From an uncultured Lachnospiraceae bacterium (GTDB taxonomy: Bacteria; Bacillota; Clostridia; Lachnospirales; Lachnospiraceae): a stretch of DNA of 64,000 nucleotides. The notes under the pieces were generated by a model. That model ran no database searches. It saw only the letters and a list, made by a program, of their open reading frames with translations, and was not told the origin of the DNA. How positions within the stretch are numbered: position 1 is the first letter of the stretch; every line of letters begins with the position of its first letter. A program made the translations under genes and the position numbers. Shown one piece after another: positions 35,594 to 62,061 of this stretch. The DNA lies in NCBI GenBank assembly GCA_900316395.1, contig ONCT01000001.1:30087-94086 (forward strand), read 5' to 3'.

Positions 35594-35622
35594 TTGACAA
35601 ATTTATAACATAGTTTTATACT
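35594..35622 (+). promoter_or_regulatory. sigma-A-type promoter of asnB
   Basis: TTGACA, 17 nt spacer, TATACT. Confidence 0.65.
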
Positions 35623-35632: not shown

Positions 35633-35648
35633 AAGACAAAGGCGTCTT
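35633..35648 (+). promoter_or_regulatory. hexaloop hairpin (candidate ANTAR-bound antiterminator) in the asnB leader
   Basis: AAGAC-AAAGGC-GUCUU. The loop and 3' arm overlap the 5' arm of the terminator. Confidence 0.55.
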
Positions 35649-35680
35649 GAAGTTTAATACTTCAAGGCGCCATTTTTTTA
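35641..35680 (+). terminator. leader (attenuator) terminator upstream of asnB
   Basis: GGCGTCTTGAAG-tttaata-CTTCAAGGCGCC followed by A-T7, about 30 nt before the asnB start. Confidence 0.8.
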
Positions 35681-35709: not shown

Positions 35710-37359
35710 ATGTGTTCAATTATGGGATATTGTGGCACGAAGATGTCTTATGAAGACTTCAAGCGCTCATTATCTAAGACAAAAACCAGAGGACCTGACG
35801 TAAGCAGGATTATTAAGACTAACAGAGGATATCTTGGATTCAATAGATTATCCATCATGGGACTTAATAATAATGGAATGCAGCCTTTTGTATTTAAGGA
35901 TAGTTCCACACTAATCTATGATGTGACTTCAGATGCGCCTTGCTACGGAGAGCCAACTGATTATGACTATGCCCTTGTATGCAACGGTGAGATATATGGC
36001 TTTCGTGATTTGAAGGAGACATTAATTGGACAGGGTTATTCCTTCATAAGCGATTCGGATTGCGAAATCCTTCCTGCCATGTATAAGGAATGCGGAGTCG
36101 ATATGTTCAAGATGCTGGATGCAGAATTCGCCCTTGTCTTATATGACAATAAGACTGATTCATATATAGCAGCAAGAGACCCTATTGGAATTAGACCTTT
36201 GTATTATGGTGTTGACGAGGACGGAAGCTACATTTTCGCATCGGAGCCTAAGAACCTGGTAAATGTTGTTAAGAACATCAAACCATTTCCACCAGGTCAT
36301 TACTTTAAGGATGGAGAATTTGTATGCTACAGAGACTTATCAGAAGTTGAAGTATACAACAATGATAGTAAAGAAGTTATATTAGGTAACATACATGACC
36401 TGCTAATCGAAGGTGTAGATAAGCGACTTGATTCTGACTCACCAGTTGGGTTCCTTCTATCAGGAGGACTTGATTCTTCCCTTGTGTGTGGCATCGCTGC
36501 ACAGCTTATGCCAAGACCTCTTGAGACATGGGCAATAGGAATGGATATAGATGCTATTGATCTAAAATACGCAAGAGAGGTTGCAGACTTCATTGGCTCT
36601 AATCATCACGAGATAATCATTACGAAGAAGGATGTGCAGGATGCGCTAGAGCCTGTTATCGAAGCACTTGGTACTTATGACATAACAACTATTAGAGCAT
36701 CAATTGGAATGTATCTTCTGTGCAAGGCAATTCATGAGCAGTCAGATAACAAGGTTATCCTAACAGGTGAGATATCAGATGAAATCTTTGGATATAAATA
36801 CACCGACTTTGCTCCATCGCCAGAAGAATTCCAGAAGGAATCTCAGAAGCGTATACGAGAGATACATATGTATGACGTGCTGCGAGCAGACAGATGTATA
36901 AGTGTTAATTCACTTGAGGCCAGAGTTCCATTTGGTGACCATGATTTTGTGGAGTATTGCATGTCCATTAATCCGGACACCAAAATGAATCATTATGGCA
37001 AAGGTAAATACTTACTTAGAAAAGCATTCGAGAAGGACAAGATAATACCAGATGATATATTGTGGCGAGAGAAGGCAGCATTTTCAGATGCTGTAGGACA
37101 CTCACTTAAGGATGATTTGGTTGAACTTGCAGAAGCAACCTACTCTGATAAGGAGTACGAGGACAAGATTAAGAAATACAAGCATGCAACACCATTTACC
37201 AAGGAGTCGTTACTATATCGTGAGATATTCGAGAAGTATTATCCTGATGAGTCAGAGATGGTAATAGACTTCTGGATGCCTAACAAGAGCTGGGACGGCT
37301 GCAATGTAAATGACCCATCAGCCAGAGTTCTATCCAACTACGGCGCCAGCGGAGTTTGA
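35710..37359 (+). CDS. asnB: asparagine synthase (glutamine-hydrolysing)
   Basis: N-terminal MC... Ntn amidotransferase. PP-loop LLSGGLDSSLV. 549 aa. Confidence 0.9.
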   Translation: MCSIMGYCGTKMSYEDFKRSLSKTKTRGPDVSRIIKTNRGYLGFNRLSIMGLNNNGMQPFVFKDSSTLIYDVTSDAPCYGEPTDYDYALVCNGEIYGFRDLKETLIGQGYSFISDSDCEILPAMYKECGVDMFKMLDAEFALVLYDNKTDSYIAARDPIGIRPLYYGVDEDGSYIFASEPKNLVNVVKNIKPFPPGHYFKDGEFVCYRDLSEVEVYNNDSKEVILGNIHDLLIEGVDKRLDSDSPVGFLLSGGLDSSLVCGIAAQLMPRPLETWAIGMDIDAIDLKYAREVADFIGSNHHEIIITKKDVQDALEPVIEALGTYDITTIRASIGMYLLCKAIHEQSDNKVILTGEISDEIFGYKYTDFAPSPEEFQKESQKRIREIHMYDVLRADRCISVNSLEARVPFGDHDFVEYCMSINPDTKMNHYGKGKYLLRKAFEKDKIIPDDILWREKAAFSDAVGHSLKDDLVELAEATYSDKEYEDKIKKYKHATPFTKESLLYREIFEKYYPDESEMVIDFWMPNKSWDGCNVNDPSARVLSNYGASGV

Positions 37360-37383
37360 CACGGGGACGTACCTTTTGTCAAC
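37354..37383 (+). repeat. GTTGACA-palindrome family copy containing the asnB stop codon
   Basis: GTTTGACACGGGGACGTACCTTTTGTCAAC. TGA at 37357-37359. Confidence 0.75.
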
Positions 37384-37388
37384 TTTGT

Positions 37389-37409
37389 GTTGACAAAGTC
37401 TTTGTCAAC
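37389..37409 (+). repeat. GTTGACA-palindrome family, compact unit
   Basis: GTTGACAAAG-T-CTTTGTCAAC. Confidence 0.75.
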
Positions 37410-37414
37410 CATGT

Positions 37415-37423
37415 GTTGACAAC
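37415..37423 (+). repeat. GTTGACA-palindrome family, half unit
   Basis: GTTGACAAC. It can pair with the preceding TTGTCAAC. Confidence 0.5.
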
Positions 37424-37465
37424 CAAAAAAAGAAAAGAGAAAAGATTACTAAAAGGAGGCACATT

Positions 37466-39565
37466 ATGACACAGCAAAACATACCTGAAATGTACGGTTC
37501 ACTAGTATTTGATGACAAGGTAATGAGAGCACGACTCTCAGTAGATGAGTACAATTCATTAAGGAAGACAATAGACGAGAACGCCAAGCTTGACCCTAAG
37601 ATTGCAGATGCAGTTGCCAACGAAATGCGTGAGTGGGCAGTAGAAAAAGGTGCAACACATTTTACACATTGGTTCCAACCACTTACAGGAGTAACAGCTG
37701 AAAAGCACGACAGCTTCATCTCACCTTCTCCAGATGGTGGAGTAATAATGGAGTTCTCAGGCAAGGAGCTAATTAAGGGTGAGCCAGATGCATCATCATT
37801 TCCATCAGGAGGACTTAGAGCAACATTCGAAGCAAGAGGATATACAGCATGGGACCCAACATCTTATGCATTTATCAAGGATCACACACTATGTATCCCA
37901 ACAGCATTCTGCTCATACTCAGGAGATGCGCTAGATAAGAAGACACCACTTCTTCGTTCTATGCAGGCCCTTAACGTGCAGGCTAAGCGTATCCTTAAGC
38001 TGTTTGGCAAGGAAGTAAAATACGTAAGAACAAGCGTTGGTCCAGAGCAGGAATACTTCTTAGTTGACAAGGAAATGTTCGAGAAAAGACCTGACCTTGT
38101 ATATACAGGAAGAACACTGTTCGGCGCAATGCCACCTAAGGGTCAGGAGCTTGACGACCACTACTTCGGAGTTATTAAGCCAAGAGTAAGTGCATTTATG
38201 GAGGACTTAAATGACGAATTATGGAAGCTTGGTATCTTAGCCAAGACAGAGCATAATGAGGTTGCACCAGCACAGCACGAGATGGCGCCAATCTTCTCTA
38301 CAACTAATGTGGCTACTGATAACAACCAGCTTACAATGGAGATTATGCAGAAGGTAGCAAGGAAGCATGGAATGGTTTGCCTTCTCCATGAGAAACCTTT
38401 CAAGGGAGTTAACGGTTCTGGTAAGCACAACAACTGGTCCATGGCAACAGATACAGGAACCAACCTGTTATCCCCAGGGGATACACCATCAGAGAATGCC
38501 CAGTTTTTATTATTCCTATGTTCAGTTGTTCAGGCTGTTGATGATTATCAAGACCTGCTCAGACTATCTGTTGCAACAGCAGGAAACGACCATAGACTTG
38601 GAGCTAACGAGGCGCCACCTGCAATTATTTCAGTATTCTTAGGTGATGAGCTTAGCGCTATCCTAGATGCCATTAAGAACGACAAGCCATATCATGATAA
38701 GGAGAAGGAGGTAATGAAGCTCGGCGTTCATTCTCTTCCAAGATTCTCTAAGGATACAACGGACAGGAACAGAACTTCGCCATTTGCATTTACAGGTAAC
38801 AAGTTCGAATTTAGGTCTCTAGGTTCATCTAACAGTATTGCTTGCTGTAACATTATGTTAAATGCTGCTGTAGCCGAAAGTCTCAAGCAGTACGCTGACA
38901 GATTAGAGAAAGCCAAGAACTTCGAAGATGAGCTGCATGACTTAATCAAGGAAACAATCACAGCTCATGAGAGAATTCTATTCAACGGCAATGGCTACAC
39001 TGATGAGTGGGTTAAGGAAGCTACAGTGGTTAGGGGCTTATCTAACCTTAAGACTACTGCAGATGCAATGCCACATTTGTTAGATGAGAAGAACAAAGAG
39101 ATGCTAATGGCACACAAGGTGTTCAGCGAGTCAGAGCTTAATTCAAGATGTGAGATTATGCTAGAGAACTATTGTAAGACAATCAATATCGAAGGCCTGA
39201 CAATGGTTGACATGGTAAGGAAGAATTATCTTCCTGCAATTGAAGGATATGTATATTCATTAGCCAAGAGCATGTCGACAGTTAAGTCTGTTTCACCTAA
39301 TGTAAAATGTGCATATGAGCAAAAGACATTAGAGAGATTATCATATCTTGCAGACGAGATATTAGATAAGGTAGATGCTTTAGAGGCTGCCTTAGAAGAG
39401 TTGAAAGACTACGATAACATCATCAAGACTTCTGAGGCAATTAGAGATAATGTGCTTCCTAAGATGGAAAGCTTAAGAGATTCAGTAGACGAAGCAGAGA
39501 CACTATCTAGTGAGAAGTGTTGGCCATTCCCAAGTTATGGCAAGCTACTGTTTAGTGTATATTAA
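37466..39565 (+). CDS. glnN: glutamine synthetase type III
   Basis: 699 aa, GSIII length and layout (N-terminal MYGSLVFDD..., [25 protein letters not shown] motifs). Confidence 0.85.
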
Positions 39566-39577
39566 TAGTAAATACAG

Positions 39578-39647
39578 TCATCCCACAATGGCGTGGAATA
39601 GAAGTTGGTGTAATAGACTACTTGCCAGATGTGGGATGATTTTTTTA
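39578..39647 (+). terminator. long intrinsic terminator between glnN and amt-PII
   Basis: TCATCCCACA...TGTGGGATGA outer stem plus inner UGGC/GCCA and GUGG/CUAC pairs, followed by T7. Confidence 0.8.
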
Positions 39648-39676
39648 TGGGAAATGTAGTTGGTGTAAGGAGGAAA

Positions 39677-41443
39677 ATGAAAATGATAGACACAATTTAT
39701 GAATCACTACATGGAGAAGTATTTGGAGTATGGTTTTTAATTGGAGCGGCATTAGTGTTCTGGATGCAGGCAGGATTCGCCATGGTAGAAACAGGATTTT
39801 CCAGAGCAAAGAATGCAGGTAATATCCTTATGAAGAACCTGATGGATTTTTGTATCGGATGCGTTGTATTTATCCTTATAGGATTTGGATTGTTATTCGG
39901 TGAAGATCTTGTTGGATTGATTGGTAAGCCGGGATTTGATATATTCACAGACTATGCTAATTTTGACTGGTCTAACTTTATATTCAACCTTGTGTTCTGT
40001 GCAACCACTTCAACAATCGTATCAGGAGCTATGGCTGAGAGAACCAAGTTCTTAAGCTACTGTGTATATTCAGCAGTTATATCTGCATTAATCTATCCTA
40101 TAGAGGCCCATTGGATCTGGGGAGATGGATGGTTGTCACAGATGGGATTTCATGATTTTGCAGGCTCCTGCGCAATCCACATGGTAGGAGGAATTGCGGC
40201 TATCATAGGAGCGAAGATGGTAGGACCTCGTATCGGTAAGTTTGAGAAGGATAAGGACGGAAAGGTTACCAAGATAAATGCTATTCCAGGTCACAACATT
40301 GTAATCGGTGCCTTAGGAGTATTCATTCTATGGCTTGGATGGTATGGATTTAACGGTGCAGCATGTACATCAGTTGACCAGCTATCATCAGTATTTGTTA
40401 CAACAACAATTGCACCATCAGTTGCTACAGTAGTATGTCTTGCATATACATGGATTAAGTATGGTAAGCCTGATGTATCTATGTGTCTCAACGCTTCTCT
40501 TGCAGGTCTTGTTGCAGTAACAGCAGGCTGCGATGTAGTTGATGCTCTAGGCTCAATTATTATTGGAATTGTATCAGGATTTCTTGTATGCTTCGGCGTA
40601 TGGTTACTTGATTATAAATTACACATTGATGACCCTGTAGGTGCTGTTGCAGTACATATGTTAAATGGTATATGGGGAACAATTGCAGTGGGACTATTTG
40701 CCACAACCTCAGCTCCAGGCAACGACAGCATTGAAGGATTGTTCTACGGCGGAGGATTTACACAGCTTGGTTTACAATCACTTGGCGTTGTATCAGTCGC
40801 AGCATGGGTAACTATTACTATGATAATTGTGTTCTCGATTATCAAGGCAATATTTGGACTTCGAGTTACAGAAGAGGAAGAGATAGAAGGACTTGATTCA
40901 ATGGAGCATGGTCTTACATCTGCCTACGCAGGCTTCTCAATTGTGGACGTTACAGAGAATACTATGGTGGCAAATGAGAATACTAAGCTGGGCGTTACAG
41001 AATACGAACAAGCCAGCCCTGCTCAGATTAAGGCTGCTGTTCCAGTAGAGGATACAACTACGCATTTGGCAGGAACAAGTCTCGATACTGGCATTAATAA
41101 AGTTGTTATTATTACGAAGCTGTCTCGCTACGACAAGATGAAGAGAGCTCTTAACGAGTTAGGTGTATCAGGTATTACTGTTACACAGGTAACTGGCTGC
41201 GGTATCCAGAAAGGTGCCGGCCAGATGTATCGTGGAGTTGAGATGGACATGACATTACTTCCTAAGATTAAGCTGGAGGTAGTGGTAAGCGATATTCCAG
41301 TTCAAAGCGTTATTGAAGTTGCTAAGAAGACACTTTATACAGGCAAGATTGGTGATGGTAAAGTCTTCGTATATCCTGTTAGCAAGGTTGTCAAGATTCG
41401 TACAGGTGAAGAAGGTGCGTTGGCACTTCAGGACGTTGAATAA
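39677..41443 (+). CDS. amtB: ammonium transporter fused to a C-terminal PII (GlnK-like) domain
   Basis: Amt core (FAGSCAIHMVGG, GIWGTIAVGLF). About 60-aa linker. PII domain with T-loop GAGQMYRG and GDGKVFVYPV. ATG at 39677 after GGAGG. The ORF-track start at 39629 lies inside a terminator stem. Confidence 0.85.
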   Translation: MKMIDTIYESLHGEVFGVWFLIGAALVFWMQAGFAMVETGFSRAKNAGNILMKNLMDFCIGCVVFILIGFGLLFGEDLVGLIGKPGFDIFTDYANFDWSNFIFNLVFCATTSTIVSGAMAERTKFLSYCVYSAVISALIYPIEAHWIWGDGWLSQMGFHDFAGSCAIHMVGGIAAIIGAKMVGPRIGKFEKDKDGKVTKINAIPGHNIVIGALGVFILWLGWYGFNGAACTSVDQLSSVFVTTTIAPSVATVVCLAYTWIKYGKPDVSMCLNASLAGLVAVTAGCDVVDALGSIIIGIVSGFLVCFGVWLLDYKLHIDDPVGAVAVHMLNGIWGTIAVGLFATTSAPGNDSIEGLFYGGGFTQLGLQSLGVVSVAAWVTITMIIVFSIIKAIFGLRVTEEEEIEGLDSMEHGLTSAYAGFSIVDVTENTMVANENTKLGVTEYEQASPAQIKAAVPVEDTTTHLAGTSLDTGINKVVIITKLSRYDKMKRALNELGVSGITVTQVTGCGIQKGAGQMYRGVEMDMTLLPKIKLEVVVSDIPVQSVIEVAKKTLYTGKIGDGKVFVYPVSKVVKIRTGEEGALALQDVE

Positions 41444-43008: not shown

Positions 43009-43021
43009 ATTCCAGTAAATA

Positions 43022-46677: not shown

Positions 46678-46689
46678 TGTACTAGACAA

Positions 46690-46757: not shown

Positions 46758-46775
46758 AAGAATAACACTAAACAC

Positions 46776-46804
46776 TTGACATATGCATAATATGGTAGTA
46801 GAAT
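46776..46804 (+). promoter_or_regulatory. sigma-A-type promoter of the gltB operon
   Basis: TTGACA, 17 nt spacer, TAGAAT. Confidence 0.65.
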
Positions 46805-46836
46805 AATAACGATTTTAAGAAGAAATAGTGATTTAT

Positions 46837-46852
46837 GAAGCAAAGGCGCTTC
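46837..46852 (+). promoter_or_regulatory. hexaloop hairpin (candidate ANTAR-bound antiterminator) in the gltB leader
   Basis: GAAGC-AAAGGC-GCUUC. Same loop as the asnB leader with fully compensated stem changes. It overlaps the terminator 5' arm. Confidence 0.55.
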
Positions 46853-46882
46853 GAGTTTACGCTCGAAGTGCCTATTTTTTTG
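46845..46882 (+). terminator. leader (attenuator) terminator upstream of gltB
   Basis: GGCGCTTCGAG-tttacg-CTCGAAGTGCC followed by TA-T7, about 25 nt before the gltB start. Confidence 0.8.
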
Positions 46883-46905
46883 CTTGTATTTAGGAGGAAA
46901 AAGCT

Positions 46906-49900
46906 ATGTCTAACGCATTTGAACAGATTACAGAAAACGGATTATATAGTCCTCAGTTTGAGCATGACAATTGTGGTATCGGTGCTGTTATTGATATAGA
47001 AGGTAGAGCCAGTCACAGTCTGGTTGCAGACGCCCTATCAATCGTCGAGAATCTCGAACACAGAGCAGGTAAGGATGCAGAGGGTAAAACCGGTGATGGT
47101 GTTGGTATTCTAACCCAGATTCCTCATAAATATTTTGTTAAGGTAATGAAGAAGCAGGGAGTAGAACTGGGTGGTCCAAGAGAATATGGTGTAGGAATGT
47201 TCTTCTTCCCACAGGATGACCTTGACATGAGACAGGCAAGTACAATGTTCGAGATTATTGTAAGAAAGGCAGGTCTCGAATTACTTGCATGGAGAAAGGT
47301 TGCATCTAAGCCAGGCGTATTAGGTTCTAAGGCTAAGGAGTGTATGCCTAATATCTATCAGGCATTTATTGCAAGACCAGATGGTGTTAAGTCGGACTTA
47401 GATTTCGATAGGAAGCTATATATCATAAGAAGAGAATTTGAACAAAGCTGTGATAATACATACGTGCCTTCCCTATCTTGTAGAACAATAGTATATAAGG
47501 GAATGTTTCTTGTAGGACAGCTTCGCACATTCTTTACAGACCTTCAGGATAAGGATTATGAATCAGCAATCGCAATGGTTCATTCAAGATTCTCAACTAA
47601 TACAATGCCAAGCTGGAATCGTGCGCATCCTAACAGGTTCATTGTTCATAATGGAGAGATTAACACAATTAAAGGCAACGCAGACAAGATGCTTGCAAGA
47701 GAAGAGACTATGTTTACAGACGCATTTGATTCAGAGGATATGACTAAGGTTCTTCCTGTAATATCACAGAGCGGCTCTGATTCTGCAATGCTTGATAACG
47801 TACTAGAATTTCTTGTTATGTCTGGAATGGACTTACCTCTAGCAATGACTATTATGCTTCCAGAACCATGGGCGCATAATGAGACATTAACTCAGGAAGA
47901 GAGAGATTTCTACCAATACTATGCAACTATGCTAGAGCCTTGGGATGGCCCTGCGTCAATCCTGTTTTCTGATGGTGATGTAATGGGTGCAATACTAGAT
48001 AGAAATGGTCTTCGCCCATCAAGATATTACATTATGGACGATGGCAGATTAATCCTGTCATCAGAGGTTGGTGTGCTTCCTCTTGATGAAAGCCACATTT
48101 TGAAGAAGGAGAGACTTCATCCAGGTAAAATCCTGTTAGTTGACACCAAGGAGAAGAAGATAATTCTAGATGATGAGCTTAAGGAGAGATATGCTCTTAA
48201 GAAGCCTTATGGTGAATGGCTTGATAGCAATTTGCTGCCACTTTCTGATATTAAGATTCCTAATAAGAAGGTTCCAAGTATCAAGGGAGATGACCTTAAG
48301 AAATTGCAGAAAGCATTCGGCTATACCTGGGAGAACTACAATGACGGAATCAAAGGAATGGCCCTTAATAATAATGAGACAATTGGCTCAATGGGTGTTG
48401 ATACGCCTATTGCTGCACTCTCAACTGAGTACCAGCAACTATTTTATTATTTCAAGCAGTTATTTGCACAGGTTACTAACCCACCAATTGATTCTCTTCG
48501 TGAAGAGATAGTAACATCAAGAACAGTTTACATTGGCAAAAACGGTAACCTCTTACAAGAGAAGGAAGATAACTGTCAGGTGGTTAAGATTGACAATCCA
48601 ATATTAGCCGACCTTGATTTACTTAAGATTGAGAATATGAACAAGGAAGGCTTCAAGGTTGCTAAGGTATCTACCCTATACTACAAGTCAACCCCAATTA
48701 AGCGTGTGCTTGACCATTTATTTGTTGAGGTGGATAAGGCATACAAAGAGGGAGCTAACATACTCATCCTATCAGATAGAGGAGTTGATGAGAACCATGT
48801 TGCACTTCCTTCACTTCTTGCTGTAGCAGCAGTACATAATCATCTGGTTCAGACTAAGAAATGTACAGCAATGTCTCTAATTCTTGAATCAGGAGAACCA
48901 TGTGAAGTACATCATTTTGCAACACTTCTTGGATACGGTGCAAGCGCAGTTAACCCATACCTTGCCCATGCAACAATTGAAGAATTAGTAGAAGATGACC
49001 TGTTAGATAAGGACTATTATGCAGCAGTTAAGGATTATGATAATGCAATTTTATTTGGAATAGTTAAGATTGCATCTAAAATGGGTATTTCCACAATTCA
49101 GTCATACCAGGGCAGCAAGATATTCGAGGCAATTGGAATATCATCTGAGGTTATTGACACATATTTCCCAGGTACAGTAAGTCGTATTGGTGGAATCACA
49201 TTAGAGGATATAGGTAAGGCAGTTGACAGACAGCATTCAAGAGCCTTCGACCCACTAGGTCTTCCAACCAACTTAGAGCTTACAGCCCTTGGTCGTCACA
49301 AGAGCAGAAGTCAGGGTGAGCATCACAGATATAACCCTAAGACAATTCATATGCTCCAATTGGCTACAAGAGAAGGAGACTATGAGAAGTTCAAGCAATA
49401 TACGGACATGGTCAACCAGGAAACTACAGGATATATAAGGAGTTTCCTAGACTTCACCTATCCAAAACAAGGTATTTCAATTGATGAAGTAGAAAGCGTT
49501 GATGAGATTGTTACAAGATTCAAGACAGGAGCCATGTCTTATGGCTCGATTTCGGAAGAAGCCCATCAGACTCTTGCCATAGCAATGAATCACTTGCATG
49601 GCAAGTCTAATAGTGGTGAAGGTGGGGAGAGCGATGAGCGTATGCTGTCTCGTGGCACTGATAATGACAGATGCTCTGCTATAAAACAGGTTGCCAGCGG
49701 TAGATTTGGAGTGACAAGTAGATACCTAACTAGTGCAAGAGAAATCCAAATCAAGATGGCACAAGGCGCAAAGCCAGGAGAAGGTGGCCACCTTCCTGGC
49801 AAAAAAGTATACCCATGGATTGCCAAGACGAGACATTCTACCCCAGGTGTAAGCTTAATCTCGCCACCACCTCATCATGATATTTATTCAATTGAGGATT

Positions 49901-51456
49901 TGGCACAATTAATCTATGACCTAAAATGTGCTAACAAGAACGCCCGCGTATCTGTCAAGCTTGTATCAGAATCAGGCGTAGGTACAGTTGCGGCAGGTGT
50001 TGCCAAGGCAGGAGCAGGAGTAATCCTAATTTCAGGATACGATGGTGGAACAGGTGCTGCACCACTTTCATCTATTCATAATGCAGGACTTCCTTGGGAG
50101 CTTGGACTGTCTGAGACACATCAAACCTTGATTGCCAATGGACTAAGGAACAAGGTTGTAATTGAGACTGACGGTAAGTTAATGAGTGGTAAGGATGTTG
50201 CCATCGCAGCAATACTTGGAGCAGAGGAATTCGGATTTGCCACAGCGCCGCTTATTACACTAGGTTGCGTAATGATGAGAGCCTGCCAGTCAGATACATG
50301 TCCTATGGGTGTTGCCACACAGAATCCTGAGCTAAGAAAGAGATTCAAGGGCAAGCCAGAATATGTTGAGAATTTCATGAGATTTATTGCTCAGCAGCTT
50401 CGTGAAATAATGGCTAAGCTGGGAGTAAAATCAATTGACGAGCTTGTTGGAAGAACTGATCTTCTTCGCGTTAAGGATGAGCTTGATACAACAGATGTGA
50501 AGCTTGATTTAACAAGAATTCTAATGAGAGATTTTGATAAGACACTTTCTCACAGTCCTAAGAATTTATATGATTTCGAGCTTGAGAAGACTAAGGACGA
50601 GAGTGTTCTTCTTGCATCCAAGGATATTAAGAAGGCAATTAAGGAGGGCAAGAAGGCTAAGGCTAGTGTAGAGCTTAAGAGTGTTGACAGAACATTTGGT
50701 ACACTTCTTGGAGCCGAGATTACAAGGAATAACCTTGATGGTTTAAGTGAGGATACAATCACAATTGATTGTACTGGCGCAGGTGGCCAGAGCTTTGGCG
50801 CATTTATTCCTAAGGGACTCACCCTTAATCTTGTTGGAGACAGCAACGATTACTTTGGCAAGGGCCTATCAGGCGGTAAGCTGATTGTTAAGGCGCCTAA
50901 GGAAGCGAAATACAATCCACATGAGAATATCATTATTGGAAATGTTGCATTGTACGGAGCCACAAGTGGTAAAGCCTTCATAGCTGGTATGGCAGGTGAG
51001 AGATTCTGCATTCGTAATTCAGGTGCAACAGCCTGTGTCGAAGGCGTGGGCGAGCACGGATGCGAGTATATGACAGGAGGAGTGGCCGTTATACTTGGCC
51101 CAACAGGCAAGAACTTTGCAGCAGGAATGTCAGGTGGTGTGGCCTATGTTCTTGATGAGAATAACAAGCTATACAAGAACCTGAATAAGCAGCTTGTCTC
51201 TATGGAAAATGTTGATTCCAAAGTAGATAAGGAGGAACTTAAGGCAATCATCAGTGAACATGTTAAGTTAACAGGTTCTAAGAAGGGTCAGGAAGTGCTA
51301 GATGACTTTGACAATGAGGTTAAGCATTTCAAGAAGATTATACCAACTGATTATAAGATTATTATGAAGGAAATCGCACATCAGAAGGAACAGGGAGCTG
51401 ATGATGACACAGCGAAGATTGAAGCGTTCAAAGTAGTTGTAGGAGGTGAGAAGTAA
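46906..51456 (+). CDS. gltB: glutamate synthase large subunit
   Basis: 1516 aa. N-terminal HDNCGIGAV Ntn amidotransferase. FMN and GXGXG domains. Confidence 0.95.
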   Translation: MSNAFEQITENGLYSPQFEHDNCGIGAVIDIEGRASHSLVADALSIVENLEHRAGKDAEGKTGDGVGILTQIPHKYFVKVMKKQGVELGGPREYGVGMFFFPQDDLDMRQASTMFEIIVRKAGLELLAWRKVASKPGVLGSKAKECMPNIYQAFIARPDGVKSDLDFDRKLYIIRREFEQSCDNTYVPSLSCRTIVYKGMFLVGQLRTFFTDLQDKDYESAIAMVHSRFSTNTMPSWNRAHPNRFIVHNGEINTIKGNADKMLAREETMFTDAFDSEDMTKVLPVISQSGSDSAMLDNVLEFLVMSGMDLPLAMTIMLPEPWAHNETLTQEERDFYQYYATMLEPWDGPASILFSDGDVMGAILDRNGLRPSRYYIMDDGRLILSSEVGVLPLDESHILKKERLHPGKILLVDTKEKKIILDDELKERYALKKPYGEWLDSNLLPLSDIKIPNKKVPSIKGDDLKKLQKAFGYTWENYNDGIKGMALNNNETIGSMGVDTPIAALSTEYQQLFYYFKQLFAQVTNPPIDSLREEIVTSRTVYIGKNGNLLQEKEDNCQVVKIDNPILADLDLLKIENMNKEGFKVAKVSTLYYKSTPIKRVLDHLFVEVDKAYKEGANILILSDRGVDENHVALPSLLAVAAVHNHLVQTKKCTAMSLILESGEPCEVHHFATLLGYGASAVNPYLAHATIEELVEDDLLDKDYYAAVKDYDNAILFGIVKIASKMGISTIQSYQGSKIFEAIGISSEVIDTYFPGTVSRIGGITLEDIGKAVDRQHSRAFDPLGLPTNLELTALGRHKSRSQGEHHRYNPKTIHMLQLATREGDYEKFKQYTDMVNQETTGYIRSFLDFTYPKQGISIDEVESVDEIVTRFKTGAMSYGSISEEAHQTLAIAMNHLHGKSNSGEGGESDERMLSRGTDNDRCSAIKQVASGRFGVTSRYLTSAREIQIKMAQGAKPGEGGHLPGKKVYPWIAKTRHSTPGVSLISPPPHHDIYSIEDLAQLIYDLKCANKNARVSVKLVSESGVGTVAAGVAKAGAGVILISGYDGGTGAAPLSSIHNAGLPWELGLSETHQTLIANGLRNKVVIETDGKLMSGKDVAIAAILGAEEFGFATAPLITLGCVMMRACQSDTCPMGVATQNPELRKRFKGKPEYVENFMRFIAQQLREIMAKLGVKSIDELVGRTDLLRVKDELDTTDVKLDLTRILMRDFDKTLSHSPKNLYDFELEKTKDESVLLASKDIKKAIKEGKKAKASVELKSVDRTFGTLLGAEITRNNLDGLSEDTITIDCTGAGGQSFGAFIPKGLTLNLVGDSNDYFGKGLSGGKLIVKAPKEAKYNPHENIIIGNVALYGATSGKAFIAGMAGERFCIRNSGATACVEGVGEHGCEYMTGGVAVILGPTGKNFAAGMSGGVAYVLDENNKLYKNLNKQLVSMENVDSKVDKEELKAIISEHVKLTGSKKGQEVLDDFDNEVKHFKKIIPTDYKIIMKEIAHQKEQGADDDTAKIEAFKVVVGGEK

Positions 51457-52940
51457 TGGGTAAGACAACGGGATTCTTAGAGTATGACAGACTTGAGGGA
51501 CCAGTAAGAACTGAAGAAGACAGAATTAAGGATTTCAAGGAATTCCATGAAGCATTACCTCTTACCAAGCAGCAGGAACAGGCTGCAAGATGTATGAACT
51601 GCGGAATACCATTTTGTCAGGCGGGAGCATTGATATCAGGAATGGTATCGGGCTGTCCACTTAACAACCTTGTTCCAGAGGTAAATGACCTTGTATATAG
51701 AGGAAGAATGGAAGAAGCCTATAAGAGATTATCTGTAACGCACAGCTTTCCGGAATTCACAAGCAGAGTGTGTCCTGCATTATGCGAAGCCGCATGTACC
51801 TGTGGCTATCAGGATGGAAGTGTATCAACTAAGGAGAATGAGAAAGCAGTTATCGAATATGCTTATGCTAATAACCTTGTTGAAGAGATACATCCTAAGA
51901 CACGAACAGGTAAGAAGGTTGCTGTAATTGGAAGTGGACCTTCTGGTCTTGCAACAGCGCAGCTTCTTAACAGACGTGGCCATGAGGTTACGGTGTACGA
52001 AAGAAGGGATAGAGTTGGCGGACTTCTTCGTTATGGCATTCCTAATATGAAGTTAGACAAGTCTCTAATTGACAGGCGAGTTAAGCTAATGGAAGATGCA
52101 GGTGTTACCTTCAAAGTAAATGTTGATGTGGGCAAGGACATTACTGCGTCAGAACTGAAGAAGGAATACGATAGCATTGTACTTGCATGTGGTGCATCTA
52201 ATCCAAGAGATATTAAGGCCCCTGGTCGTGAGGCCAAGGGAATAAGATTCGCCGTTGATTTCCTAACAGAAGTTACCAAGACTTTGCTTGATAGCAATTT
52301 CGAGAAAGTTCCAACTAATCTTGCCAAGGACAAGGATGTAATAATTATCGGTGGCGGAGATACTGGAAATGACTGTTGTGGAACCTGTATCAGACTGGGA
52401 GCAAAAAGTGTTACACAGCTTGAGATGATGCCTAAGCCATCAGAAGAAAGACTGCCATCAAATCCATGGCCAGAATGGCCTAGAATTCTCAAGGTAGATT
52501 ACGGTCAGGAAGAGTCCATATACAAGTTCGGACACGATCCAAGAATCTATCAGACGACTGTTAAGGAATTCATTAAGGATAAGAAGGGTAACCTTAAGGA
52601 AGTAGTATTAGTTAAACTAGAATCTAAGAAGGATGAGAAGACGGGACGATTCATGATGGTTCCAATCGAAGGAACAGAAGAAACAGTTCCATGTCAGCTT
52701 GTCCTAATTGCAGCAGGCTTCTTAGGAAGTGAGAAGTATGTCACCGACGACTTCAAGGTTGAACTTGACGGCAGAACCAATGTTAAGACAGAAGGCGACA
52801 AGCATTCCTCATCCCAGCCTAACATCTACGCTGCAGGCGATGTCCGTAGTGGCCAGTCATTAGTAGTTCGAGCCATAGCCGACGGCCGCAAAGCCGCCAG
52901 AGAAGTCGACTTGGCACTCATGGGCTACACCAACTTGTAA
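51456..52940 (+). CDS. gltD: glutamate synthase small subunit (NADPH)
   Basis: Cys clusters CMNCGIPFC and CPALCEAAC. VAVIGSGPSGLATA dinucleotide motif. Start overlaps the gltB stop. Confidence 0.9.
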   Translation: MGKTTGFLEYDRLEGPVRTEEDRIKDFKEFHEALPLTKQQEQAARCMNCGIPFCQAGALISGMVSGCPLNNLVPEVNDLVYRGRMEEAYKRLSVTHSFPEFTSRVCPALCEAACTCGYQDGSVSTKENEKAVIEYAYANNLVEEIHPKTRTGKKVAVIGSGPSGLATAQLLNRRGHEVTVYERRDRVGGLLRYGIPNMKLDKSLIDRRVKLMEDAGVTFKVNVDVGKDITASELKKEYDSIVLACGASNPRDIKAPGREAKGIRFAVDFLTEVTKTLLDSNFEKVPTNLAKDKDVIIIGGGDTGNDCCGTCIRLGAKSVTQLEMMPKPSEERLPSNPWPEWPRILKVDYGQEESIYKFGHDPRIYQTTVKEFIKDKKGNLKEVVLVKLESKKDEKTGRFMMVPIEGTEETVPCQLVLIAAGFLGSEKYVTDDFKVELDGRTNVKTEGDKHSSSQPNIYAAGDVRSGQSLVVRAIADGRKAAREVDLALMGYTNL

Positions 52941-52965
52941 TACACTAAATAATAAGGAGTAAATC

Positions 52966-55794
<2,829 letters not shown>

Positions 55795-55795
<1 letters not shown>

Positions 55796-56871
55796 TGATA
55801 GCTAATAGGAAATTAATATTAGAAGATGGTTCGTGCTATGAAGGCATAGGATTTGGAAGTAATGATGAGAAAGTATTAGAGATTGTATTCAATACATCAA
55901 TGGCAGGATATCAGGAAATATTATCAGACCCGTCCTATACAGATCAGGCAATTGTAATGTCATATCCTTTAATTGGTAATTATGGTATAGCAGAAGAGGA
56001 TTTCGAGAGTAAAATGATTGGTGCAAGTGCACTAATTGTAAGAGACATTAATGATAATCCTTCTAACTTTCGCTCCACTAAGTCAGTTCCAGAGTTACTA
56101 GAAGAAGCAGGCGTGCCGGGTATATACGGAGTTGACACGAGACAACTAGTAAGAAGTATTAGAGACCATGGTTCCAGAAGATGCATAATAACAGATGCTA
56201 GTACTTCTAGCGAATTAGGGGTGTCCCGAATTAAGGACACCCCAATAAGTCATGATGCAGTAAGAAGAGTTAGCTGTAAGAAGAAATATTATTCCCGCAC
56301 ATCTAATCCTAGATACAATGTGGTTGCAATTGACTGTGGCATGAAGACTAACATTGTAAGAATGCTTAATGATAATAGATGCAATGTAACAGTTGTGCCA
56401 TACAATACAACTAGCGATGAGATACTTGCCCTTCATCCTGATGGATTGTTTATATCTAATGGACCAGGAGATCCAACTGATGTTCCAGAAGTAATTGATA
56501 CACTAAGAGGTCTTCATGGCAGGGTTCCAATGTTTGGAATATGTCTTGGCCACCAGCTTATTGCGCTGTCTTACGGAGCTAAGACATATAAGCTTAAGTT
56601 CGGACATAGAGGCGGCAACCATCCAGTTCGCGACGTAAGAACAGGCAAGATTGAGATTACCAGTCAGAATCACAGCTACGCAGTTGACGCAGATTCTATT
56701 CCACAAGATGAACTTAAGATATCTCATATCAATCTATTAGATAATACTGTTGAAGGGTTGTATAGCAATAAGAATAAGGTCTTCTCAGTTCAGTATCATC
56801 CAGAAAGCGCACCGGGTCCATGTGACAGCATGTACCTATTCAATAGATTTACTGAGCTAATGAAGAATTAA
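55795..56871 (+). CDS. carA: carbamoyl-phosphate synthase small (glutaminase) subunit
   Basis: 358 aa. GICLGHQL catalytic Cys. YHPES motif. Confidence 0.95.
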
Positions 56872-56874
56872 TAG

Positions 56875-56931
56875 TATGAGATAATATCTGCCAAGCGATT
56901 TTCTTCATGAGCGTGCAGATATTATCTCATA
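56875..56931 (+). repeat. conserved-loop hairpin, copy C
   Basis: Perfect 17-bp stem TATGAGATAATATCTGC / GCAGATATTATCTCATA around CAAGCGATTTTCTTCATGAGCGT. Confidence 0.85.
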
Positions 56932-56952
56932 GGATAACAGTACATTATAGCC

Positions 56953-57017
56953 AGGTTAAGATATAATACCTACTAAGCGATTTTCTGTATGAGCGCGTAG
57001 GTATTATATCTTAACCT
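56953..57017 (+). repeat. conserved-loop hairpin, copy D
   Basis: Perfect 21-bp stem AGGTTAAGATATAATACCTAC / GTAGGTATTATATCTTAACCT around TAAGCGATTTTCTGTATGAGCGC. Confidence 0.85.
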
Positions 57018-57045
57018 TACAAGATACTACATCAGGAGATTAATT

Positions 57046-60000
57046 ATGCCTAAGAGAAAAGATATTAAGAAAGTATTAGTTATAGGCTCAGGTCCTATTG
57101 TAATAGGTCAGGCGGCAGAGTTTGACTACGCAGGCACCCAGGCCTGCCTTGCCCTCAAGGAGGAGGGCTACGAGGTTGTTCTTGCCAACTCCAATCCTGC
57201 AACAATAATGACTGACAATTCTATTGCTGACAAGGTGTATATGGAGCCCCTTACACTAGAATATATGGCAAGGATATGCAGGTACGAACGACCTGATGCT
57301 CTGCTACCTGGAATTGGAGGCCAGACAGGTCTTAATCTGTCCCTTCAATTACACGACAAGGGCGTCTTAGACGAATGCGAGATTGAACTTTTAGGAACTG
57401 ATGCCTCTAGCATAAGACGTGCAGAGGACAGGGAAGAGTTCAAGGAATTATGCGAAATGTTAGGAGAACCAGTAGTTCCATCTATGATTGCCAACACCCT
57501 AGAAGAGGGACTTAAGGCAGCAGAGGATATCGGCTATCCCGTAATTCTACGACCAGCATTTACACTTGGTGGAACAGGCGGAGGCTTTGCCAATGACGAA
57601 GAAGAGATGACAAGGATGATGAAGAATGCATTATCCCTATCGCCAGTACATCAGGTGCTAGTTGAAAAGTCTATCAAGGGCTACAAGGAGATTGAATATG
57701 AAGTAATTCGAGATGCTGCTGATACAGCAATTACTGTATGTAATATGGAGAATCTCGACCCGGTAGGAATTCATACAGGTGATTCAATTGTAGTTGCACC
57801 AAGTCAGACCTTAACTAATAAGGAATACCAGATGTTAAGAAGCAGTGCTCTTTCCATCATAAGAGCACTAGAGATTAAAGGCGGTTGTAATGTTCAGTTT
57901 GCCCTTGATCCAGAATCCTTTGACTACTATGTTATTGAAGTTAATCCCAGGGTGTCCCGCTCCTCTGCATTAGCATCTAAGGCAAGTGGATATCCGATAG
58001 CCAGGGTGTCAGCCAAGATTGCTGTTGGAATGAATTTAGATGAGATAGAGCTTGCCAACACACCAGCATGCTTCGAGCCAACACTTGATTATGTAATAAC
58101 CAAGATGCCACGTTTTCCATTTGACAAATTCACATTGGCATCTAATGTCTTGTCAACACAGATGAAGGCTACTGGTGAAACCATGAGTGTTGGAAGGACA
58201 ATGGAAGAAAGTCTTCTTAAAGCAATCAGGTCTCTAGAGGATGGGAAGAATCATATCCATCTTGAGAAATTCGATGTGGCAAGTCTGTCTAAGTCTAATA
58301 ACAAGAAGGAAGCAATAGATAAGCTCCTTGATTATATAGAGGAAGGAACAGATGACAGGTTATATGCAATATCTGAGCTGCTGTGGCTTGGAGTTGACCC
58401 GCAGATTATCTATACGAGAACGAAGATTGATATGTTCTTCTTAGATAAGATTAAGAGAATCGTTGACTTTGAAGTAAAGCTAGAAGAGCATGGTAAGGGT
58501 GATGCTAGTCTTGACAAGTCGCTATTATATGATGCTAAGCGAATGGGATTTTCTGATTCATATATTGCCGAATTAGTCGGATGTGAGGAGGATGATATAT
58601 GGCAGCTTCGCAAGAAATATAACATTTACCCTGTATACAAAATGATAGACACATGTGCCAGTGAATTCGAAAGCTATGTACCATACTTCTATTCAACATA
58701 CGAAGATGAGAACGAATCCATTGTGTCTAATAATAGGAAGATTATCGTCCTGGGTTCTGGCCCGATTAGAATCGGTCAGGGTGTGGAATTCGATTATTCC
58801 ACAGTCCATGCAGTTAAGACCATTCACGAAATGGGATATGAGGCCATTGTAATTAACAACAATCCAGAGACTGTTTCTACAGATTATACTACAGCGGACA
58901 AGCTGTATTTTGAGCCTTTGACCATAGAAGATATTATGAATATAATTGACCTAGAGAAGCCAGAGGGAGTTATTGTATCCTTAGGTGGACAGACGGCAGT
59001 TAACCTTGCTGATGCCTTAGAGAAACGCAAGGTCAACATAATAGGAACTGACACCAAGGCCATATTTACAGCAGAGGATAGAGATGCCTTCGAGAACATA
59101 ATTAAGGAGCTTAAGATTCCTCAGCCACAGGGTGTAGCCGTAACTAATATTGAAGACGGAATTAAGGCAGCAGCAGACATAGGCTATCCTGTGCTTGTTC
59201 GTCCATCCTTTGTTCTTGGTGGTCGCGCCATGGAGATTGTTGCCAATGAGAAGATGCTAAGTCATTATCTTAAGAATGCCGTTGAGGTTGACAAGGACAA
59301 GCCGGTTCTTGTTGACAAATACATTGTGGGAAGGGAAGTTGAGGTTGACGCTGTATGCGATGGCAAGGACGTATTTCTTCCAGGAATTATGGAGCTTGTT
59401 GAGCGTACAGGTGTACACTCCGGAGATAGTATGAGCGTATATCCTCCATTTTCCATTTCCGAAAATGTTAAGAATACAATCTGGGAATACACCAAGAAGC
59501 TGGGAGTTGGAATTGGCATTGTGGGATTATTCAACATCCAGTTTATCGTAGATAGTGATGACAATGTATTCATTATAGAAGTTAATCCAAGGGCATCAAG
59601 AAGTGTGCCATTCCTATCTAAATCTACAGGGGTATCCCTGGTTGATATTGCAACGCGCGTTATGCTAGGAGAGAGTCTTGCAAGTCAGGGTTACGCTAAT
59701 AAGCTTCTACCAGAGAAGGATTTCTGGTATGTTAAGGCACCAGCATTTTCATTTGCCAAGTTAAATGGAATGGATGCCTATCTGTCACCAGAGATGAAGT
59801 CAACAGGTGAAGCAATAGGCTATGACAAGAGTCTGAAGCGAGCATTATACAAGGCCCTTCAGGCATCAGGTACTAAGATGAAGGAATACGGAACAGTAAT
59901 TGTTACATTAGCTGACGAAGACAAAGAGGAAGCGCTTCCACTAATTAAGCGATTCTACGACCTTGGCTTCAACATTGAAGCTACAATTGGTACAGGAACC

Positions 60001-60264
60001 TTCCTTAAGGAGCATGGAGTAAGGACTAGAATTCGCGGCAAGATTAGCGAAGGCAGCAATGAGATTCTTGAAACAATTAAAGCGGGCTACGTTAGTTACA
60101 TAATCAACACAAGAGCCATACTGTCGGGAATTCATTATAATGATGGCGTTGAGATACGACATTGTGCTATTATGAATGGTGTGACAATGTTCACATCACT
60201 TGATACTGTAAGAATACTACTTGATGTACTAGAGGAAATCTCCCCTAGAATCAGCGTGATATAG
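57046..60264 (+). CDS. carB: carbamoyl-phosphate synthase large subunit
   Basis: 1072 aa, duplicated ATP-grasp modules (VLVIGSGPIVIGQAAEFDY / IIVLGSGPIRIGQGVEFDY). Confidence 0.95.
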   Translation: MPKRKDIKKVLVIGSGPIVIGQAAEFDYAGTQACLALKEEGYEVVLANSNPATIMTDNSIADKVYMEPLTLEYMARICRYERPDALLPGIGGQTGLNLSLQLHDKGVLDECEIELLGTDASSIRRAEDREEFKELCEMLGEPVVPSMIANTLEEGLKAAEDIGYPVILRPAFTLGGTGGGFANDEEEMTRMMKNALSLSPVHQVLVEKSIKGYKEIEYEVIRDAADTAITVCNMENLDPVGIHTGDSIVVAPSQTLTNKEYQMLRSSALSIIRALEIKGGCNVQFALDPESFDYYVIEVNPRVSRSSALASKASGYPIARVSAKIAVGMNLDEIELANTPACFEPTLDYVITKMPRFPFDKFTLASNVLSTQMKATGETMSVGRTMEESLLKAIRSLEDGKNHIHLEKFDVASLSKSNNKKEAIDKLLDYIEEGTDDRLYAISELLWLGVDPQIIYTRTKIDMFFLDKIKRIVDFEVKLEEHGKGDASLDKSLLYDAKRMGFSDSYIAELVGCEEDDIWQLRKKYNIYPVYKMIDTCASEFESYVPYFYSTYEDENESIVSNNRKIIVLGSGPIRIGQGVEFDYSTVHAVKTIHEMGYEAIVINNNPETVSTDYTTADKLYFEPLTIEDIMNIIDLEKPEGVIVSLGGQTAVNLADALEKRKVNIIGTDTKAIFTAEDRDAFENIIKELKIPQPQGVAVTNIEDGIKAAADIGYPVLVRPSFVLGGRAMEIVANEKMLSHYLKNAVEVDKDKPVLVDKYIVGREVEVDAVCDGKDVFLPGIMELVERTGVHSGDSMSVYPPFSISENVKNTIWEYTKKLGVGIGIVGLFNIQFIVDSDDNVFIIEVNPRASRSVPFLSKSTGVSLVDIATRVMLGESLASQGYANKLLPEKDFWYVKAPAFSFAKLNGMDAYLSPEMKSTGEAIGYDKSLKRALYKALQASGTKMKEYGTVIVTLADEDKEEALPLIKRFYDLGFNIEATIGTGTFLKEHGVRTRIRGKISEGSNEILETIKAGYVSYIINTRAILSGIHYNDGVEIRHCAIMNGVTMFTSLDTVRILLDVLEEISPRISVI

Positions 60265-61488: not shown

Positions 61489-62061
61489 ATGCATAGACAA
61501 TCAGATATACGCTACTCCATTCTGATAGTGTCTTCCTCTGAGAGATTTGTACATTTGGTTAAGAAGTCTTTAGATGGCTTTATCACTATTGATGTAAGAA
61601 AGAGTGGGTCCCTTGCAAGGCGAAGTCTTGTTGAGAGAGATTACGATATAATTGTAATTAACGCGCCTCTTCCTGATGAGTCAGGAATTGAATTAGTAAG
61701 AGATGCATCAGACAGAAGTCGTGCTCTTATATTATTTGTTACACCAGTAGAGCTATATGATGACGTTCTTGAAAATGTTACAGATAGAGGCGTCCTTGCA
61801 ATAACCAGTGAAATGGTTGAGAACAGACTTGATAAGGCCATTCGATACCTTACTGCGCTGCAAGGGCGAATACATCGTTTAGAGCAGAAGACTCTTACAC
61901 TTGAGGAGAAGATGACAGAGATTCGACTTGTCAACAAAGCCAAAGCCATACTTATTAATAAGAAGGGCTTAAGTGAAGCTGAGGCGCACAAAGCCATTGG
62001 CAAGCTGGCTATGGACAATGGAGTATCAAGAGGAGAAATCGCCAAGCGAATAATAGGTTGA
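61489..62061 (+). CDS. ANTAR-domain RNA-binding antiterminator with pseudo-receiver domain (NitR/AmiR-like)
   Basis: C-terminal ANTAR IRLVNKAKAILINKKGLSEAEAHKAIGKLAMDNGVSRGEIAKRII. The receiver-like N-terminus has IVINAPLPDESG, i.e. Asn where the phospho-acceptor Asp is expected. Confidence 0.85.
   Translation: MHRQSDIRYSILIVSSSERFVHLVKKSLDGFITIDVRKSGSLARRSLVERDYDIIVINAPLPDESGIELVRDASDRSRALILFVTPVELYDDVLENVTDRGVLAITSEMVENRLDKAIRYLTALQGRIHRLEQKTLTLEEKMTEIRLVNKAKAILINKKGLSEAEAHKAIGKLAMDNGVSRGEIAKRIIG

Follow-up and report, generated by a model that had tools for sequence, protein, structure and literature searches.

Two groups of nitrogen-assimilation genes in the window, by which we mean the whole 64-kb stretch of rumen Lachnospiraceae DNA that was analyzed (64,000 nucleotides), are each preceded by a leader in which a predicted σA promoter is followed by a short hairpin with a six-base loop and by an intrinsic terminator that overlaps the hairpin (Table 1). 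One leader precedes asnB and the other precedes gltB, the first gene of a presumed 15-kb unit that ends with a divergent glutamine synthetase (GS)-like gene and a gene for an ANTAR protein. The gene order of the gltB unit is repeated in loci from other genomes (L002–L012 and L029). Within this stretch, the gap between carA and carB measures 175 nt and contains repeat elements.

Table 1. Predicted leader elements and associated genes in the window
Feature	Position	Strand	Description
Predicted σA promoter, asnB leader	35594..35622	+	TTGACA, 17 nt, TATACT; 10 nt 5′ of the hairpin
Putative hexaloop antiterminator hairpin, asnB–glnN leader	35633..35648	+	AAGAC-AAAGGC-GUCUU; second-best match of models R1 and R2
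Intrinsic terminator, asnB leader	35641..35679	+	Stem 35641–35671, U-run 35673–35679; −22.7 kcal/mol
Genes 3′ of the asnB leader	35710..41443	+	asnB, glnN (GS type III), amt–PII fusion
Tentative third site, glnN–amt spacer	39577..39646	+	Hairpin in the 5′ arm of a long terminator-like hairpin
Predicted σA promoter, gltB leader	46776..46804	+	TTGACA, 17 nt, TAGAAT; 11/12 against the consensus
Putative hexaloop antiterminator hairpin, gltB leader (P2-equivalent)	46837..46852	+	GAAGC-AAAGGC-GCUUC; best match of models R1 and R2
Intrinsic terminator, gltB leader	46844..46881	+	13-bp stem 46844–46873, loop UUUA, U-run 46875–46881
Genes 3′ of the gltB leader	46906..60264	+	gltB, gltD, aminotransferase, pyrG, carA, carB; GS-like and ANTAR genes next
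Divergent GS-like gene, candidate signal sensor	60300..61475	+	391 aa; Pfam Gln-synt_C/N; directly 5′ of the ANTAR gene
Presumed trans-acting factor gene	61489..62061	+	190 aa; pseudo-receiver and ANTAR domain (NitR/AmiR type); last gene of the gltB unit

Read directly from the sequence, the gltB hairpin consists of GAAGC (46837–46841), the loop AAAGGC (46842–46847, with A at position 1 and G at position 4), and GCTTC (46848–46852), and it can be extended by an optional sixth pair, U·G, at 46836/46853. Its predicted folding energy is −4.9 kcal/mol, or −6.4 kcal/mol with the extra pair included. The asnB hairpin is built in the same way from AAGAC (35633–35637), AAAGGC (35638–35643), and GTCTT (35644–35648), with a predicted energy of −3.2 kcal/mol. 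Stem pairs 1, 3, and 4 of the five differ between the two hairpins and all three differences are compensatory, while the closing C–G pair and the loop are the same. In both leaders a GC-rich stem-loop is followed directly 3′ by a U-run, as in an intrinsic terminator: each has a 13-bp stem with seven GC pairs and then seven T residues, and the gltB terminator has a predicted energy of −21.5 kcal/mol. The stems of the two terminators are unlike in sequence and both fold strongly (z = −4.6 for the gltB leader and −6.4 for the asnB leader, relative to shuffles). The terminator 5′ arm begins within the hairpin loop in both cases (A/GGC) and absorbs all of the hairpin's 3′ side; for gltB, the loop bases that the arm includes are GGC. 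The sequence-only reading had described a shared hairpin/terminator module in which pairs are exchanged at three of five stem positions with complementarity kept throughout, the AAAGGC loop and the overlap with the terminator 5′ arm (GGCG...) being unchanged between the leaders, and this description proved accurate throughout.

The overlap makes the two structures mutually exclusive. Specifically, fold computations for both leaders indicate that when the small hairpin is held closed, no terminator can form beside the U-run. Assembled metatranscriptome contigs run across both terminators into gltB and asnB, and none extends upstream beyond the predicted promoters. At the gltB leader, assembled rumen contigs begin at 46829 and 46831 and none covers 46668–46801; at the asnB leader the RNA contig begins at 35641, with none further upstream. 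These contigs, which are few, of low depth, assembled, unstranded, and possibly accompanied by DNA, and which give no 5′ or 3′ ends, are weakly consistent with transcript starts near the hairpins and with read-through in vivo.

On its own, the heptamer AAAGGCG shows no enrichment in the window (5 occurrences against 3.65 expected), so that any test of the element must include structure. A covariance model of 22 positions, R2, was therefore built from instances in other genomes only, and the window was searched with it without filters. The top two matches in the 64 kb are the two leaders, at 23.4 and 22.7 bits (E of about 0.002–0.003), and the next-best match in the window scores 15.8 bits. Model R1, which includes the window sequences, ranks the two leaders identically. 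The signal is that of a hairpin in the context of a terminator, not of sequence alone. Rfam 15 returned no matches anywhere in the window at gathering thresholds, and at permissive E-values the region 46700–46920 gave only sub-threshold chance matches, such as ctRNA_pGA1 at 25.7 of 45 bits. A generic scan for an ANNGNN hexaloop followed by a terminator was too noisy, with 107 matches against 44–68 in shuffled sequences; it was useful only in combination with promoter and gene context and was replaced by sequence-only selections.

A third site, in the glnN–amt spacer, was also considered. Here the hairpin CCAC-AAUGGC-GUGG (39583–39596) lies inside a long hairpin (39577–39639) that is followed by UUUUUUU (39640–39646), and the whole folds with a predicted energy of −27.3 kcal/mol and z = −4.0. 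Its loop likewise carries A1 and G4, and the same loop, AAUGGC, is present in a bona fide gltB leader (L035). The covariance-model score of 11.5–11.9 bits, with E of about 2, is at noise level. Moreover, the site is absent from the glnN–amt spacer of L023, the only comparable spacer, and likewise from the glnN–asnB spacers of L016, L018, and L020. Because it is not conserved in these spacers, its role as an internal antiterminator site is kept as tentative.

Homologs of the window's ANTAR protein were used to retrieve all of the 29 genome loci that we compared, which span rumen and gut Lachnospiraceae, Oscillospiraceae, Ruminococcus, Sedimentibacter, and unclassified Clostridia and include a sheep-rumen Lachnospiraceae metagenome-assembled genome that is 99% identical (L001). 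The module, consisting of a stem, an A-A-R-G-R-Y hexaloop, the complementary stem, and an overlapping terminator, was found in 17 of the 29. Scanning metagenomes with the GltB N terminus gave a second and independent set, in which the gltB leaders of L030 (the same species), L031, L032, L033, L035, L036, and L076 carry the module; R1 finds new instances among these metagenome leaders that are absent from its building set. Several human-gut contigs have a variant with a 3-bp stem, CGC-AAAGGA-GCG. Most of the 80 metagenomic gltB relatives have no module directly upstream; in many of these, other genes precede gltB in the operon, and others, such as the human-gut group L075–L090, appear to be regulated differently.

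In all, about 30 further instances were identified in genomes and metagenomes, upstream of glnN, amt, glt, asnB, gdhA, and purA operons, and the genes downstream are nitrogen-assimilation genes throughout. The glnN (GS type III) operons that bear the module contain glnN alone or together with asnB or amt. The module is also found upstream of amt–glnB, upstream of split glutamate synthase operons whose last genes are the GS-like and ANTAR genes, upstream of gdhA in L002, and upstream of purA in L013, where the GS-like and ANTAR genes come after purA. When co-location was counted on the ANTAR-anchored loci (the metagenome gltB leaders being loci of 3 kb), the module lies within 10 kb of the GS-like/ANTAR pair in 17 of the 17 module-bearing loci (among L002–L028), with L022 having the ANTAR gene alone. 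At least 10 different stems occur, including GAAGC, AAGAC, AGGUC, GAUGAGC, GAAC, CGGC, CAGC, AUAGC, UUAGAC, and AGGC. In contrast to the stems, A1, A2, and G4 of the loop and the closing C–G pair are invariant in sets of 16 and 17 distinct instances, the loop variants being AAAGGU, AAAGAU, AAGGAU, AACGGC, AAUGGC, and AAAGGA.

Covariation was examined with attention to ASCERTAINMENT. Across 16 distinct hairpins, 92.5% of the cells are paired, with double changes at four of the five pairs, the fifth being the invariant C–G. None of 500 shuffles reaches the observed covariation score, a significance that is inflated by the shared ancestry of the instance sets, and sliding the 3′ partner out of register lowers pairing to 29–45%. 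As these 16 hairpins came from a search that required a stem, the test was repeated with selection on sequence only. Among 77 distinct CAAAGGYG octamers in all of the sequence collected, 24 have at least three further pairs where 4.1 would be expected, and a T-run follows 22 of these 24 paired sites vs. 7 of the remaining 53. Similarly, when 202 terminators were chosen because their 5′ arm starts in an ANNGNN hexamer, 22 proved to be flanked by a stem of 4 bp or more, against about 4 expected, and those that start in AAAGGY have one in 12 of 12 cases. AAAGGC also pairs with GCCUUU at the 3′ end of the terminator in many instances, and conservation of the AAAGG loop could partly serve the terminator itself. 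The sequence-only reading had staked its proposal on finding further instances in related genomes and on covariation holding up as more sequences were aligned; both were borne out, and a covariance-model search of relatives, of the kind that it suggested, added instances in metagenome gltB leaders.

ANTAR proteins, among them AmiR, NasR, and EutV, are RNA-binding antiterminators. The product of the last gene of the gltB unit has an ANTAR domain (Pfam, 4.9e-14) and a receiver domain that scores below the Pfam cut-off. In this protein SS stands in place of the acidic pair DD of receiver domains, and Asn occupies the phospho-acceptor position. The N-terminal DD is replaced by SS, SA, or GS in 29 of 29 homologs, and the acceptor position, aligned to D65 of Rv1626, is N in 23 of them, D in 4, S in 1, and R in 1. 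Judged by these residues, the receiver-like domain is a predicted pseudo-receiver without the acidic phosphorylation pocket. The RNA-contact residues R142, K147, K149, and E160 of EutV are conserved in the window protein, and Y164 is replaced by His, as in AmiR; in the EutV–RNA structure from which these contacts are taken, Y164 stacks on loop G4 (PMC8934654).

The gene directly upstream encodes a GS-like protein that scores 252 bits against the 429-bit cut-off of NCBIfam GlnA and aligns well with solved GS structures. It adjoins the ANTAR gene upstream in 27 of the 28 loci that have an upstream flank. Since this GS-like gene is shortened and divergent, the catalytic GS is probably GlnN, and the constant adjacency of the two genes makes the GS-like protein the likely sensor.

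Collectively, these observations lead us to interpret the leader element as an ANTAR-dependent transcription attenuator of the NitR/AmiR type for nitrogen assimilation, a reading to which we assign a probability of roughly 0.78. The mutually exclusive folds and their energies, the covariation, the A1/G4 conservation, the promoter position, the gene contexts, and the co-location with the GS-like/ANTAR pair are observed or computed. From them we infer that the ANTAR protein is the binder of the hairpin, and likewise the direction of the nitrogen signal; the module would then control two entry points, asnB–glnN and the stretch from gltB to the ANTAR gene. The shared riboregulatory element of the sequence-only reading is thus upheld, and it is refined to a probable one-hairpin RNA target of the ANTAR protein, which that reading had named only as a gene.

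ANTAR targets have been described as two short hairpins, P1 and P2, with hexanucleotide loops carrying A1 and G4, of which P2 overlaps the terminator (Ramesh et al. 2012, PMC3369931), and for EutV both hairpins are required for antitermination in vivo and in vitro (PMC3369931, PMC8934654). An improbable alternative, albeit the likeliest of the rivals, is that the module is a canonical dual-hairpin target whose P1 was overlooked, either because it lies upstream in a longer transcript or because it is too degenerate to be recognized, as it could be at 46812–46826 of the gltB leader. The gltB leader is an outlier, its hairpin being separated from the −10 box by 31 nt, and at 46812–46826 it has an AU-only palindrome, AUUUU-AAGAA-GAAAU, as far from the promoter as the first hairpin is in L031. 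However, this palindrome has a predicted stability of 0.0 kcal/mol, and its loop, which is without G4, does not follow the A1/G4 rule. In almost every instance, a near-perfect TTGACA-17-TAnnnT promoter (10–12 of 12 positions) ends 5–16 nt before the stem, so that the hairpin begins at about +1 to +10 of the predicted transcript; a hairpin so near the predicted 5′ end leaves no room for a P1 and a linker. The divergent glnN/glt arrangements (L016, L018, L020, L023, and L027) likewise argue against a longer transcript, for there no more than about 160 nt separates the two opposed hairpins, and both promoters fall within that interval.

A search of the 55 nt upstream for an ANNGNN hexaloop closed by at least 3 bp found a hairpin in 3 of 28 instances, leaving 25 without one; with a background of 15% in random windows, this is no more than chance would give. 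In L033 the hairpin belongs to a complete module that comes first in a tandem pair, in L016 it is chance-like, and in L031 it has the appearance of a genuine P1. L031, a 79%-identical relative, carries ATGTC-AAAGGG-GACAT, a 31-nt linker, and then GAGGC-AAAGGC-GTCTC with its terminator, and the length of that linker is beyond the range tolerated by EutV (PMC3369931, PMC8934654). Two complete modules stand in tandem in L032, L033, and L024. On balance, these data tip us modestly toward the view that a single hairpin may truly suffice for antitermination. We hold with similarly slight preference that ANTAR regulons spanning the clade (Lachnospiraceae, Oscillospiraceae, Ruminococcus, and Sedimentibacter) combine a single 5′-terminal hexaloop antiterminator with a GS-like sensor.

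It is less probable still that the hairpin is bound by something other than the ANTAR protein, such as the GS-like protein, PII, another RNA-binding protein, or a small RNA, with the ANTAR gene being incidental. The co-location is admittedly with the GS-like/ANTAR pair as a whole, within which the partners are not separable, but the loop follows the A1/G4 rule that is specific to ANTAR targets, the overlap with the terminator is that of P2, the ANTAR RNA-contact residues are kept, and L022 has an ANTAR gene and a module with no adjoining GS-like gene. Very unlikely, and the weakest of the alternatives, is the absence of any ANTAR switch, with the leaders being ordinary or leaky terminators, 5′ stabilizing stem-loops, or complementarity that results from A-tract/GC-clamp design, or else riboswitches or leader-peptide attenuators: the frequent pairing of AAAGGC with GCCUUU at the terminator base and the AUG with which the gltB hairpin begins (46836–38) are in its favor, but the sequence 5′ of the terminator covaries with the terminator 5′ arm through at least 10 stems, which a plain terminator does not need, a terminator set behind a consensus promoter and ahead of genes essential for assimilation points to read-through that is conditional, none of the Rfam families, glutamine riboswitches included, comes to or near threshold, and a hairpin of 16 nt is too small for a ligand pocket. 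Leader-peptide attenuation in particular was rejected, since the AUG at 46836 has no Shine–Dalgarno sequence and is missing from the asnB leader and from most other instances.

If the ANTAR-dependent attenuator is as we propose, the leaders would be transcribed from a strong constitutive σA promoter, and by default the nascent RNA would fold into the stable terminator, such that transcription would stop before gltB or asnB. When nitrogen is limiting, the ANTAR protein would bind the A1/G4 loop near the 5′ end of the transcript and keep the weak 5-bp hairpin closed. GGC and the 3′ side of the stem, from which the base of the terminator 5′ arm is made, would be locked up in the closed hairpin; the terminator would thereby be blocked and RNA polymerase would read through. 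With its gene in last place in the gltB unit, the regulator would itself become more abundant upon read-through, giving positive feedback. The divergent GS-like protein, in turn, may hold or release the regulator according to nitrogen status.

The genes pyrG and carAB, which lie within the gltB unit, consume glutamine. The element defines, by sequence alone, a likely nitrogen regulon of abundant rumen and gut Clostridia that takes in gltBD, glnN, amt–glnB, asnB, gdhA, and pyrG–carAB, and it points to a divergent GS paralog as the sensor. With a 16-nt hairpin, a 30-nt terminator, and a 190-aa protein, it is also a natural compact test case for ANTAR function. In addition, C-AAAGGC-G with a flanking stem and a terminator is easily scanned for, and such scans could improve operon and regulon annotation in metagenome-assembled genomes. 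If a single hairpin does suffice, the successive binding model, in which the protein passes from P1 to P2, would need revision for this ANTAR subfamily, and the P1 "recruitment" hairpin, held to be essential from work on EutV, NasR, and AmiR, would be dispensable. It would also follow that the main nitrogen-assimilation regulon of gut and rumen Clostridia has systematically escaped searches for dual hairpins.

Earlier surveys bear on this point. Dual-hairpin ANTAR targets are concentrated upstream of nitrogen-metabolism genes (PMC3369931). The 2012 covariance search found dual-hairpin matches by GS/ANTAR genes in other Firmicutes (Alkaliphilus, Carboxydothermus, and Caldicellulosiruptor), and none at the nitrogen genes of Butyrivibrio, Roseburia, and Eubacterium eligens, the three Lachnospiraceae genomes in its Table S2 (PMC3369931); the lack of a dual-hairpin match in those Lachnospiraceae is what would be expected if the lineage uses the one-hairpin form. 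More recently, a single hexaloop was recognized as the minimal ANTAR binding unit, in which G4 is flipped onto an aromatic residue (Walshe et al. 2022, PMC8934654). In the crystal structure the ANTAR dimer contacts a single hexaloop, and the authors predicted that single-hexaloop sites may exist and called for searches for them (PMC8934654). They expected such sites where no polymerase races to a terminator and argued that such a race makes two hairpins necessary (PMC8934654), whereas the single hexaloops described here are coupled directly to terminators. A 2025 review gives ANTAR targets as dual-hairpin only.

The closest relatives of the module are the dual-hexaloop ANTAR targets of EutV, NasR, and AmiR, with which it shares a stem of at least 3 bp, a six-base loop with A1 and G4, overlap with the terminator 5′ arm, an ANTAR protein encoded in or near the regulated operon, and a nitrogen regulon. 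It differs from them in having the P2-equivalent only, near the predicted 5′ end, and in a more constrained loop, which is mostly C-AAAGGC-G. A further parallel is NitR of Clostridium saccharobutylicum, an ANTAR protein encoded beside glnA that, in the account given by a citing paper, is reported to antiterminate GS/GOGAT genes under nitrogen limitation (PMC6316151). The NitR–glnA pair of C. saccharobutylicum and Clostridium acetobutylicum goes back to Stutz et al. 2007, as cited in PMC6316151 and PMC4676874, and as far as those citing papers describe it, the arrangement resembles the one reported here in that the ANTAR gene is directly downstream of a GS gene (27 of 28 loci in our set). The GS-like gene of the present loci is, in contrast, a shortened divergent paralog. 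The NitR literature may contain an earlier description of a similar hairpin in Clostridium.

With AmiC–AmiR and NasS–NasT, the system shares a receiver domain without a phosphorylation pocket, a His at the G4-stacking position as in AmiR, and an adjacent partner gene, which suggests control by protein–protein sequestration. The partner here, however, is a homolog of glutamine synthetase rather than a sensor with a periplasmic-binding-protein fold, and the proposed sensing through the GS-like/ANTAR pair would be reminiscent of the control of TnrA by feedback-inhibited GS. Thus, the element belongs functionally with the ANTAR antiterminator targets, yet it has one hairpin where their defining arrangement has P1 and P2, and a one-hairpin antiterminator is a departure from the only ANTAR cases that have been studied mechanistically.

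Contigs assembled from bovine rumen metatranscriptomes (runs X1, X6 and X10) match the leaders of gltB (46829-47084) and asnB (35641-35898) of this species at 95-100% identity and span both leader terminators, so the organism and both operons appear to be expressed in vivo. The architecture of the hairpin-terminator module carried by such leaders varies among the loci. In the metagenome locus L031 (1078-1145), one terminator is preceded by two hexaloop hairpins, 31 nt apart; two full hairpin-plus-terminator modules stand in tandem in the metagenome loci L032 (828-1110) and L033 (1055-1170) and the genome locus L024 (8035-8290, minus strand). Seven human-gut contigs (L041, L052, L056, L058, L071, L092 and L102) carry a variant with a 3-bp stem, CGC-AAAGGA-GCG, which sits inside the 5' arm of the terminator.

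The shortened, divergent GS-like gene of the gltB unit is directly followed by the pseudo-receiver ANTAR gene (61489-62061), and this pairing, seen in the window and across L002-L029, holds in 27 of 28 loci. Such constant adjacency suggests that the GS-like protein is a GS-derived nitrogen sensor, the partner of the ANTAR antiterminator. In the asnB unit, a single ORF of 604 aa (39629-41443) fuses an ammonium transporter to a P-II (GlnB/GlnK) domain; the fusion also occurs in L024, and the two are separate genes in the genome loci L026 and L028.

Features between and within the two nitrogen units of the window
Feature	Position	Remark
purF-like amidotransferase gene	41497-42903	precedes HTH-Fic gene
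Intergenic hairpin, copy	42935-43015	minus strand
PPDK_N-domain protein gene	43073-45643	precedes HTH-Fic gene
HTH + Fic domain protein gene	45757-46677	between asnB and gltB units
Intergenic hairpin, copy	46690-46756	just upstream of gltB promoter
Intergenic hairpin, copies	56872-56934 and 56950-57016	both between carA and carB
GS-like gene	60300-61475	391 aa; 252 bits vs 429-bit GlnA cut-off

A distinct intergenic hairpin occurs in four copies that share a conserved loop of ~23 nt with the core AAGCGATTTTCTnnATGAGCG, for which 0 copies are expected by chance. The flanking stems of 17-20 bp differ wholly in sequence from copy to copy, yet complementarity is kept, with fold energies between -26 and -31 kcal/mol and z-scores between -5 and -8. 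Among 109 loci searched, the core was present only in L030, a metagenome locus of the same species, and the element had no match in Rfam. It may be a REP/MITE-like repeat or a protein-binding RNA or DNA hairpin.

The asnB-glnN spacer (37374-37424) holds two tandem palindromes, TTGTCAAC-N5-GTTGACAA (TGTCA-N9-TGACA), that lack a U-run. TnrA/GlnR sites have a 17-bp consensus, with which the spacing of these palindromes disagrees. The palindromes may act as the operator of some DNA-binding regulator, or they may be an internal promoter region; TTGACA occurs in each.
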